Of a DNA stretch of 32,000 nt, positions 8,716-10,809 are shown one piece after another. The notes below the pieces were generated by a model. It ran no database searches. It had not been told where the DNA came from and was given only the letters and a program-made list of their open reading frames with translations. Each line of letters opens with the position of its first letter. Within the stretch, counting starts at the first letter, position 1. Position numbers and translations under genes: made by a program. This DNA is from Acaryochloris marina MBIC11017 (GTDB taxonomy: Bacteria; Cyanobacteriota; Cyanobacteriia; Thermosynechococcales; Thermosynechococcaceae): contig NC_009928.1 in the NCBI RefSeq assembly GCF_000018105.1, positions 30,001-62,000 on the forward strand, in the 5' to 3' direction.

Positions 8716-10809
8716 TTATTGCTGGGCGTAGTTGAGCAGGGTCTGAAGTTGGTCAGGAGAGATTTTGGCCCGCTTTGCTGCCACATCAGCCTTTGCTCCC
8801 CAACGCATCTGGCGAATCATGCCGTTAACTCGCCAATGCATTTCCGAGAGATAGCTATACGTCTGGTTGCCTGACGCTCTAGCGATGTTTAGACCCCTCA
8901 AAAGGGTCGCTGGAGTGATACGGCTATCGGACACATTAGTTTTAGTCAGGGGTATGTTAGCCGTTGGGATAGGCTTTACCTTCTGAGTTAGGGGGACTCG
9001 TCGCACAGGAGGACGTTTGACGATCTTCGGTTTGGGAAGTGTCTGAGCCTGGGGCTTTAAGGTCAAAGGCTGGACCGCTGTCGAAGCTTGATGAACGCGA
9101 GTCCTCTCAGGTGGTTGACCCAGGCGACCTGTGAAGACTCGCGATTGCTCTGGGGTATGAGCAATGGGGGTGGGTGTTCCAATCCGAGTGATGGCAGTAC
9201 TGGGGGCACTGTCAGACCGATTGATCGTTAACTCCATTGAGGAGCGGTTGCAGCCCACTAAATCTTGGATTAAGTTCGTCGATTTCACCTGGGTATTGGG
9301 TTTCCAAGTCAGGTAAATCTTCTGGGTTTGGGGTTGGGGCCGATCCAAGCTCAGGTCAAAGATTCCCCTCGTACCCATATAGGCTTTGGAGACCCGGCAC
9401 CCGCTTGCGGTAAGGTCAATCAGGTGACCATGACCGGGCGCTATCTTAATGGTTTCCGCTGTGGCTGGGGAGATGAGCAGCCCCAACCAGGCCGCGATCA
9501 TGGCGGCAATGGTTTTGTACATGGCGTTTTTCCTTGGCAAGTGCATCTGCTGGGGTGGAGGGTTGCTATCAAAGACAGCTCCTCGCTGTGGTTGTTGGCT
9601 GGTGTCAGGGCCAGCCCGTGATGGAAATCCTCTAAGGCAATCAGATATCGTCGCTAATGGTCTGTGAATAAACTCGGTTACTGCTTGGCAGAATCCCAGA
9701 TGTCCTCGCCCAGTCGTTCCAGGCTCTCCCAGTCCACGGCATCGCTGATCCGCTGGGGAAGGTTGATGCCCCGGTCGATCAGTAGACCCGTCACTGCGAC
9801 CCCCACAAAGAACCAAAAGAGATTCCTGAGCATGGGCAATAACTCCTTTGACTAAGTTGATAGCTTTAGCAGAAAGAGACTCTATAGCAGGGGGAGCCTG
9901 GGAATAAGCGTAAGGATTAATGCTGTTTTCGTAGCAGAAGGAAAGAGGAGCAGGCCAGGTATTGAGGTTTACTCGTTCCTGACCTACTTCTGGTGCTGTT
10001 GATGGGGAGGATCTGCTGAAACTTTGGGAAAATCCTAGTCGAGTATGTTCCAGTTGGTCTTTGGCTGCATTCACGAACTGCGCCAAGCCAACCCGGAACC
10101 ACTGCTTGAGGAGATGGATTGGGATTTGATACTTCGGTGGAATGAAAGGTGGAGGTGCTTTGATTAGGACGAGATTTGTCTTTGTCTCAGGTTCAAGCTC
10201 AATATCAAAATACTCGTCATATTCTTCATCATCCGTGTAGAATGACGCATCATCAATCACAAATTCATGCCAGTCTGGGATTTCTTGAAATGAACGGCCC
10301 CAATAGAGTAAATCCTCGATATATTCCAGCTTTAGGTTCGCTTTTCGGGCAATCTCTTCCAGGTTGGCATCAGGAAACTCGTTTTGGAGTCTGTAAACCC
10401 TATCGAGATGGACTTGTTTTTTCTCGGGCAATCTCAATTGCTTGGGTCTGTTTTTATAGCAGAATCTACGGATATATCCGCGAATCCAGCCTCTTGCATA
10501 GGTGGAGAACTTGCATCCTTTCGTAGAGTCGAATTTCCCCACGGCATGACGGATGCCTAACATCCCCTCTTGGATCAGGTCTTGAGCATCATCCAAAGTC
10601 CATGCGTATTGTTTGGCGAGTTTCGCCACCAAGCGAACATGCCCGATCATCAGCCATGACAAAGAGGTCTCATGGCCTCGCTTAGCTTTGCGGATCAGGT
10701 CTAGCTCTTGCTCTGGGTCTGGGATGGGGAAGCGGTGCAAGAACTGAACGAGATATTCGGGTAGACGGATTCCGTCTGAGAAGGGGCTAGCAATCGTAGT
10801 GGTCGTCAT
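8716..10809 (-). CDS. 697-aa ORF: N-terminal sigma-70 region 2/region 3-like module, ~240-aa low-complexity linker, signal-peptide/TM segment, then a beta-rich periplasmic domain (VirB9-like?) with a Pro-rich spacer and a helical C-terminus
   Basis: The sigma region 2 signature is [39 protein letters not shown], followed by a region 3-like LRLPEKK...[10 protein letters not shown]. No region 4 HTH is recognisable. A strong SD precedes the start (TAGGAGGTTTGACCCGATG). An internal in-frame ATG at 9520-9522 has its own SD-like AAGGA and a signal-peptide-like [22 protein letters not shown]. Confidence 0.65.
   Translation of the reverse strand: [697 protein letters not shown]

Follow-up and report, generated by a model that had tools for sequence, protein, structure and literature searches.

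A long sigma-factor frame on an Acaryochloris plasmid that overlaps a conserved membrane-protein gene and continues into a VirB9-like gene

The window, a stretch of 32,000 nucleotides (nt) from Acaryochloris marina MBIC11017 (RefSeq assembly GCF_000018105.1, contig NC_009928.1, positions 30,001 to 62,000 of the forward strand), contains on its minus strand a long open reading frame (ORF) at 8716..10809, which starts with ATG, spans 697 codons plus a stop (frame 0 hereafter), begins with a sigma-70-like module and ends with a module resembling a subunit of type IV secretion systems (T4SS). An earlier note, made from this DNA alone, offered two readings of the frame: (a) a membrane-tethered sigma-like regulator, and (b) two proteins, a sigma without region 4 and a secreted VirB9-like component made from an internal start. 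Comparison with related loci and proteins (designated L and P, respectively) reveals instead three conserved coding units, a different frame under selection in different segments, two conserved internal start signals and a frame 0 that is open from end to end; both earlier readings are incomplete because they missed a gene embedded in the +1 frame. All features within the long ORF that are described below are encoded on the same, minus strand. The full-length counterparts retrieved in the protein search are 677-701 amino acids (aa) long, 52-87% identical and confined to Acaryochloris, the remaining matches being ordinary sigma factors that cover ~20% of the query; at the DNA level, the gene is matched on plasmids of A. 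marina S15, Acaryochloris 'Moss Beach' and A. marina MBIC10699. Frame 0 is uninterrupted in the window and in L001, L004, L012, L013 and L014, and the database proteins P0001-P0006 and P0009 are likewise full length and fused. A sequencing or assembly error as the source of the long ORF is ruled out, given that complete plasmids from several strains, and metagenomes as well, carry the same open frame.

The sigma-70-like module (aa 1-257, 10039..10809) consists of regions 1.2, 2 and 3 at aa ~16-172, an acidic disordered stretch and a long helix at aa 225-257. Region 2 and the region 3-like segment had been recognized in the earlier note from the sequence alone, and the profile searches agree: aa 57-120 are hit by Pfam Sigma70_r2 (PF04542; E=2.7e-14, 53.1 bits, the cutoff being 24), the alignments to the RpoD/RpoS/SigB-type models of NCBIfam are confined to aa ~27-172, which corresponds to regions 1.2, 2 and 3.0/3.1, and AlphaFold2 models aa 16-172 with a predicted local distance difference test score (pLDDT) of 84-97, exceeding 90 in region 2. 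The sole NCBIfam model to reach its cutoff is the generic superfamily model TIGR02937 (45 bits against 42.9), the scores against the other NCBIfam families falling far under theirs. The lack of a region 4 helix-turn-helix, which had also been pointed out, holds up as well, with no match to Sigma70_r4 or r4_2 at E<=1 in Pfam, none in NCBIfam, and no sigma4 fold in the AlphaFold2 model, where aa 225-257 form a single long helix with a pLDDT of ~55. Sister plasmids carry full-length sigma paralogs that have region 4, and in hhalign comparisons, the window module is collinear with these (probability 99.7% overall, with low confidence locally at aa 225-255), so that the helix at aa 225-257 comes to lie opposite region 4.2 without being a recognizable helix-turn-helix. 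No anti-sigma domain was detected, there being no Pfam or NCBIfam match outside aa 15-198, and aa 257-451 are predicted to be disordered (pLDDT <50). The ratio of nonsynonymous to synonymous differences (pN/pS, Nei-Gojobori) of the sigma module is 0.26. With the group 1/2-like sigma-70 factors (RpoD/SigA, RpoS), the module shares regions 1.2, 2 and 3.0/3.1, both by sequence and by predicted fold, but unlike them, it lacks a recognizable region 4 and is followed by a long 3' extension that overlaps another gene.

That other gene, located at 9678..9833, encodes 51 aa (MLRNLFWFFVGVAVTGLLIDRGINLPQRISDAVDWESLERLGEDIWDSAKQ) in the +1 frame, the frame-0 reading of the same nucleotides being approximately aa 326-380 of what had been considered a linker. 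Its ATG is preceded, 9 nt upstream, by the Shine-Dalgarno (SD) sequence AAGGAG (9843..9848), and its product is predicted to begin with a membrane helix and to end in an acidic tail. In a BLAST search of plasmids, seven paralogous sigma genes match the window at 9624-9836 only, and in the alignment of the window with the paralogs, the differences sit on third positions of the +1 frame; the wobble pattern of this frame is seen across 15 distinct DNA versions. All 16 loci first examined, which belong to two gene families, keep the ATG, the stop, an ORF length of 50-52 aa and a GGAG located 9-10 nt before the ATG, and a third family (L018, L025) also has the small ORF, with a GGAG at the same spacing. 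Among the six full-length orthologs, pN/pS over aa 328-378 is 0.09 in the +1 frame versus 2.57 in frame 0 (Nei-Gojobori), and the divergence over aa 327-376 is 0.00-0.03 at frame-0 third positions and 0.2-0.3 at frame-0 first positions. The G+C content at third positions of the small gene in its own frame is 0.76. On pMB07, where the sigma gene has been destroyed by a transposase, the annotation pipeline PGAP reports the small ORF as a gene of its own, and gene callers report it alone on L015, L020 and L021. The small protein has no match to any Pfam family or PDB sequence, and no known RNA family, promoter or terminator was found above chance in the linker. The count from which the earlier note had argued, 43% G/C-ending codons among 93 linker codons (9523-9801), was reproduced exactly, the sigma module having 53% and the C-terminal module 58%; the suggestion drawn from it, that the linker may be weakly constrained or not ancestral coding sequence, fails, because the low share reflects a different gene encoded there in the +1 frame, one that specifies a conserved membrane protein. 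In frame 0, aa 328-378 show no constraint at the amino acid level, openness alone being maintained. A small functional ORF with its own start that lies wholly within a longer ORF in another frame has a precedent in comS, inside srfA of Bacillus subtilis; unlike that case, the host frame of the window is without protein-level constraint over the overlap and yet open, and the overlap recurs in three sigma gene families, the two frames being fused in a fourth.

Several lines of evidence suggest that frame 0 is kept open in spite of the small gene. Within the small ORF, there are ~10 positions at which a synonymous T would give a frame-0 stop, and these positions vary among C, G and A; across the 15 distinct DNA versions, a stop-creating T was found at 0 of 121 sites, compared with 112 of 443 comparable safe sites. 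When the small protein was recoded with the codon usage of the window, frame 0 remained open in 3-8% of the trials per family, and three divergent families all keep it open, although, because the families are related, the combined probability (~1e-4 if independent) is only indicative. The indels within aa 190-320 are all multiples of three. On either side of the small gene, frame 0 carries a coding signal of its own. Segment B (aa 258-325, 9835..10038), a weakly constrained linker with several in-frame indels among orthologs and a pLDDT below 50, has a pN/pS of 0.59 in frame 0 versus 0.84-0.93 in the other frames (third-position excess, p=0.004), and segment D (aa 381-429, 9523..9669), the tail that follows the small ORF and ends at the internal ATG, has 0.50 versus 1.10-1.25 (p=0.0003) and the conserved motifs (I/L)RGF and GAVFD, the first of which recurs in frame 0 of the paralogs and, in the L018 family, takes the form IRPF. 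The long frame appears to be kept open by selection, and the substitution patterns lead us to infer that translation from the sigma ATG continues in frame 0 across the small gene as far as the junction. Just past the small-ORF stop, at 9560-9675 of the minus strand, the window family and the paralogs share ~45 nt of conserved DNA (CATTAGCG..ATATCT......TTAGAGGATTTC); this stretch encodes (I/L)RGF in frame 0 but could equally be a nucleic-acid signal.

Beyond segment D, frame 0 enters the third unit at an internal ATG (9520-9522, aa 430). The SD-like AAGGA 8 nt upstream of it (9531..9535), which the earlier note had picked out together with the ATG, is indeed there, and AGGA at a fixed spacing and the ATG are kept in 8 of 8 orthologous loci. 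The ATG opens a signal-peptide-like segment (aa 430-451, 9457..9522) that consists of MYK, a hydrophobic core (mean Kyte-Doolittle value 2.08) and PATA, with the likely cleavage site between ATA and the following E. This is the sole strongly hydrophobic stretch of the long frame, and its pattern is conserved in orthologs and stand-alone homologs; a signal peptide or transmembrane segment had been proposed here in the earlier note. It is followed by an eight-stranded beta-sandwich resembling the N-terminal domains of VirB9 and DotH (aa 452-542, 9184..9456; pLDDT ~70-85, pN/pS 0.34), a Pro-rich disordered spacer (aa 543-631, 8917..9183; pLDDT <50, pN/pS 0.55) and a four-helix C-terminal domain of an orphan family (aa 632-697, 8719..8916; pLDDT 93-97, pN/pS 0.26). 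When aa 430-697 were searched against 1.84 billion representative proteins, stand-alone proteins of 182-298 aa were retrieved that start at the putative signal peptide, and a profile search with the C-terminal module yielded 21 stand-alone homologs in total; among the stand-alone homologs that start there are proteins of 251-305 aa. Judging from these relatives, the C-terminal module is, by ancestry, an independent gene, the upstream neighbor of which has lost its stop. The part of reading (b) that invoked an independent VirB9-like protein with an internal start is sustained by the conserved SD and ATG, by the stand-alone homologs and by the separate genes in L015-L018, L023 and L025.

The VirB9 connection itself holds for one domain and at one level. 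In the AlphaFold2 model of the C-terminal module, built from an alignment of 19 sequences, the signal helix comes ahead of the beta domain. In a Foldseek search against the PDB, the top three matches are to chain H of the Legionella Dot/Icm core complex (7MUC/7MUE, E=6.5e-6 to 2.4e-5), including 7muc_VH (E=6.5e-6, root mean square deviation 2.6 over 101 columns) and 7mue_AH (E=2.4e-5, TMt 0.48); the TM-scores are modest, 0.30-0.48, and the next matches are to generic immunoglobulin-like folds with E>3e-3. Chain H is presumably DotH, its length of 160 residues being equal to that of DotH 104-263, a segment described as structurally homologous to the N-terminal domain of VirB9 (PMC8486379). Because the best matches are DotH, the guess of a VirB9/TrbG-type N-domain is supported at the fold level, whereas sequence profiles and the C-terminal domain speak against it: neither the whole ORF nor the homologs in L016 (271 aa), P0139, P0125 and P0126 match the Pfam family CagX (PF03524)/TrbG at E<=1, and a VirB9-family match is absent from the NCBIfam scan as well. 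The UniRef label 'AMIN domain-containing' for P0139 was not reproduced by Pfam and was set aside. With VirB9, CagX and DotH, the window protein shares a predicted beta-sandwich, putatively periplasmic and preceded by a candidate signal peptide, and a gene position two upstream of a VirB4-like ATPase; in place of the C-terminal beta domain by which VirB9 pairs with VirB7 and VirB10 in the outer-membrane cap, it has four predicted helices. This helical domain has no Pfam or PDB sequence match and shows a helix-turn-helix-like pattern (…MRRGxSxxxAAxxAGVPxxVVxxLI…); in P0127, it occurs twice in tandem after a signal peptide, without the beta domain. The possibility that it represents the 'missing' sigma region 4 was rejected: region 4 is the best local hhalign match of this domain, but at a non-significant probability of 1.4%, and the domain would be on the periplasmic side. 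The beta domain (9184-9456) comes in two distinct sequence types among otherwise close orthologs (window, L013 and L015 compared), the second of which (TLNLSTKAVHTLDL...) resembles the L016-type proteins, a pattern that indicates recombination between plasmid operons.

Whether relatives have one gene or two at this position depends on their distance from the window. Among the close orthologs, fusion prevails, and L015 is split: its junction is 10 nt longer, with a TAA 4 nt before the ATG, and the C-terminal module is a separate 282-aa gene in another frame. Of the other unfused copies, L002 has a frameshift inside the C-terminal module, and L005 adjoins an IS21-like element by which it was probably truncated. 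In the more distant syntenic operons L016, L017, L018, L023 and L025, the VirB9-like homolog always has a gene of its own, which follows a sigma gene. The synteny check that had been proposed to distinguish one gene from two thus returns both answers, fusion in the close orthologs and separation in three more distant families and one ortholog, and so far as the sequences tell, the fused state is the rule, and an old one, within the window family, whereas two genes are the rule in the wider plasmid operons. The stand-alone proteins P0128 and P0130 (261-268 aa) were not accepted as evidence of split genes, given that their contigs start just 95-314 nt upstream of the ATG, and a stand-alone call on L020 was disregarded, this being a contig of 3x coverage with many frame breaks. 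P0129 is also annotated alone, on an A. marina contig of 374,161 bp. In L019, a contig of a metagenome-assembled genome with 4.9x coverage, a run of T that is one base shorter puts the sigma frame in register with the small ORF. The T6 run at codons F8-F9 of the small ORF in L012 corresponds to T5 in the near-identical L019 (2560-2600), and this T5 may be a homopolymer error due to low coverage, or else the tract may be one that can switch naturally.

A further comparison concerns the relationship between sigma and the membrane, which shows most clearly in the embedded ORF. In the family of L016, L023 and L024, a homologous helix with an acidic tail (MIRDFFIFFLGLLF...) forms the in-frame C-terminus of the sigma protein, which retains region 4 (weak r4 matches), and is still preceded by GGAGG; three other groups, namely, the window family, the paralogs adjacent to the replication gene CyRepA1 and the L018/L025 family, encode the same membrane element in the +1 frame. 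The helix and sigma are fused in one lineage and separate in others, a classical sign that two units work together, and the idea that we favor is therefore that the small protein may be a membrane partner of sigma, either a tether or an anti-sigma-like factor.

Combining these observations, we consider the locus to be, with a probability of roughly 0.65, a compact overlapping arrangement that gives rise to three products, on an Acaryochloris plasmid with a CyRepA1-type replication gene. The first unit would be a sigma-70-like protein translated from 10809, with regions 1.2-3, a degenerate region 4 and a frame that has no stop of its own. The second would be the 51-aa single-pass membrane protein (9833-9678), made from its own SD and ATG in the +1 frame inside the 3' extension of the sigma frame, and the third, a 268-aa secreted VirB9-N-like protein that would start at the internal SD and ATG at 9522 and be exported by its signal peptide. 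From the sigma ATG, ribosomes would stay in frame 0 through the small gene and the tail and, because there is no stop at the junction in the window lineage, run on into the VirB9-like gene, so that frame 0 would be translated throughout and the 697-aa read-through fusion is probably made as well. The single hydrophobic segment of this fusion (aa 430-451) could act as an internal signal-anchor, with the sigma part in the cytoplasm and the VirB9-like part outside; if inserted in this way, the fusion would be a membrane-bound sigma, and cleavage after ATA would leave a membrane-anchored sigma behind. Alongside it, the 51-aa membrane protein and the secreted VirB9-like protein would be made in free form, each from its own start.

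Several considerations weigh against this reading. At least one ortholog, L015, does without the fusion, being split with all three units intact, and the fusion is absent from three more distant families. Translation of every frame is deduced from substitution patterns in 6-16 related, non-independent sequences, and the stop-avoidance statistics presuppose synonymous sites that are partly independent. The membrane topology of the small protein and its binding to sigma are predictions, and the VirB9-like assignment concerns one predicted domain of moderate confidence (pLDDT 70-85, 19 sequences), the remainder of the protein being unlike VirB9.

The alternative that fares best, while still improbable, is that the 697-aa polypeptide itself is the functional product, a one-component membrane-tethered sigma that would cross the membrane with its internal hydrophobic segment and dock on the secretion machine with its periplasmic VirB9-like part, sigma possibly being released by proteolysis, as happens in sigma/anti-sigma hybrids. 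The continuity of the ORF over a long divergence, the avoidance of frame-0 stops and the coding periodicity of segments B and D would all fit such a protein, and there is a precedent in the extracytoplasmic function (ECF) sigma factors, namely, IutY of Pseudomonas putida and members of ECF48/52/53 such as SCO4117, which are fused to membrane and periplasmic extensions, the periplasmic region of SCO4117 being Pro-rich (PMC8999054). The order of a cytoplasmic sigma, a membrane segment, a Pro-rich periplasmic region and a periplasmic domain is shared with the window fusion, and the L016-type relatives likewise have an in-frame C-terminal membrane helix. The differences, however, are considerable: IutY and SCO4117 are ECF (group 4) factors with sigma2 and sigma4 and, in part, a zinc-binding anti-sigma domain, whereas the window protein has sigma2 and sigma3 and no detected anti-sigma domain, and its periplasmic part is an independent gene in relatives. 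Moreover, a single functional polypeptide sits poorly with the conserved internal SD and ATG and the stand-alone homologs, which show that the C-terminal module works alone, with the splitting of L015 without decay of any unit, with the separate genes in the three more distant syntenic families, and with the lack of protein-level constraint on aa 328-378 in frame 0. Reading (a) of the earlier note retains a low probability: the frame seems to be kept open and translated, and a sister family does attach a helix to sigma in frame, but the tether there is the counterpart of the embedded small ORF and not the signal peptide.

A slightly less probable and speculative extension of the three-product arrangement would assign a regulatory role to the choice of decoding. 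Under this scenario, internal initiation would yield the free 51-aa tether, +1 slippage a tail-anchored sigma like that of the in-frame sister family, and frame-0 read-through the fusion of sigma with the VirB9-like protein, and these three routes in overlapping frames would set the ratio of free to membrane-held sigma, coupling the transcription of plasmid transfer or replication genes to the assembly of the secretion machine in the envelope.

Slippage could also be the main event, in which case a programmed +1 frameshift near the start of the small ORF would generate a tail-anchored sigma, the small ORF being mainly the second half of the frameshift product. The in-frame sigma-helix proteins in L016, L023 and L024 show what such a product would look like, the shorter T-run of L019 yields the same fusion, and YUU-Y frame-0 codons occur at the start of the helix-coding part in most copies. 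We consider this unlikely because no slippery motif is common to the families, the ATG and a GGAG at start-codon spacing are kept in every copy, a stop in the +1 frame precedes the ATG by one codon in the paralogs, and frame 0 stays open far past any shift site, which is unexpected for a frameshift cassette; in addition, the L019 fusion might be no more than a homopolymer error on a low-coverage contig.

Just as doubtful is the view that the fusion is a neutral accident, caused by a lost stop or a shortened spacer, with a read-through product that is scarce, broken down or harmless, the three separate proteins alone being of consequence. Only ~49 codons (segment D) separate the small ORF from the next gene, where the downstream frame is protected by the constraint on the VirB9-like gene, 49 random codons would be open by chance in ~10% of cases (61/64 per codon), and the stop is present in L015 and the distant families; against this stand the frame-0 periodicity of segment D and its low pN/pS in that frame, the lack of any out-of-frame indel in the six full-length sequences, and the avoidance of stops inside the small ORF in three families. 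These objections point to translation of frame 0 up to the junction, not to the usefulness of the fused product.

Upstream of the locus lies a CyRepA1-family replication gene (13387-16911, minus strand) encoding a 1174-aa protein that is 42% identical to an annotated CyRepA1. This replication protein (Rep) and its pMB03 (L016) counterpart are 89% identical, but where sigma, the small ORF and the VirB9-like protein are encoded, pMB03 has another family (36% identity, helix in frame). The plasmid backbones are mosaics. Downstream are a gene for a 183-aa multi-pass membrane protein without a family match (8129-8680, minus strand) and one for a 1048-aa ATPase (4970-8116, minus strand) with remote similarity to VirB4_CagE/TrbE (E=1.1e-7, far under the family cutoff); the other genes of the operon (344-5046) match nothing in Pfam or NCBIfam. 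The placement of the long frame 'inside the T4SS operon' in the earlier note draws weak support from the ATPase and none from the other neighbors; a T4SS operon is plausible, not proven by sequence profiles, and the conjugation system, if there is one here, is very divergent. Just upstream of the sigma start, at 10843-11013 of the minus strand, there is a conserved 56-aa ORF (MTDRNSSDHNLQPNPILSHAQIWGKTGHGKVALAIS...), homologous to 59-aa 'hypothetical proteins' at the same position in L001 and L016, that carries a P-loop-like fragment; over a short stretch, this fragment also matches Walker A of the 1048-aa VirB4-like protein (6248-6301 of the window).

The paralogs occupy a different position. 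In L003, L006-L009 and L011, a full-length sigma gene with region 4 and an embedded +1 small ORF lies ~500 nt upstream of CyRepA1, and in the ~60 codons that follow the small ORF in these CyRepA1-adjacent paralogs, first, second and third positions alike are conserved, a pattern suggestive of a control element at the DNA or RNA level. In Synechocystis, the ssr7036/asRNA1 control region of pSYSA is located upstream of CyRepA1, and Ssr7036 is a basic protein of 64 aa that is not described as a membrane protein (PMC9978351). The paralogous Acaryochloris loci are alike in having a small ORF upstream of a CyRepA1-type rep gene, whereas the window locus is not upstream of rep; the likeness is one of position, homology having been neither tested nor seen.

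In the searches made, the family was found only on Acaryochloris plasmids. The small ORF is present in 11 plasmids of PLSDB, all from Acaryochloris, forms one cluster in the protein database and was not found in a scan of JGI metagenomes; a scan of GTDB representative genomes with the C-terminal module returned one locus, and a literature search found no description of the family.

In every Acaryochloris plasmid, automatic annotation registers the locus simply as a 'sigma-70 family RNA polymerase sigma factor' of ~690 aa, and under this label, a conserved gene for a membrane protein and a subunit of a secretion system go unnoticed. The locus illustrates clearly how, in nature, the middle of a long ORF can be under constraint in a different frame, with the ORF's own frame just kept open, and this signature can be searched for elsewhere. 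Comparison of the families provides a 'Rosetta stone' that links a plasmid sigma factor to the membrane, with the helix in frame in one family and out of frame in three, and with sigma additionally fused to the next gene in one family. If the link between sigma and the membrane is functional, it would represent a new way for the large plasmids of cyanobacteria to couple gene expression with conjugation or replication, a subject on which very little is known.

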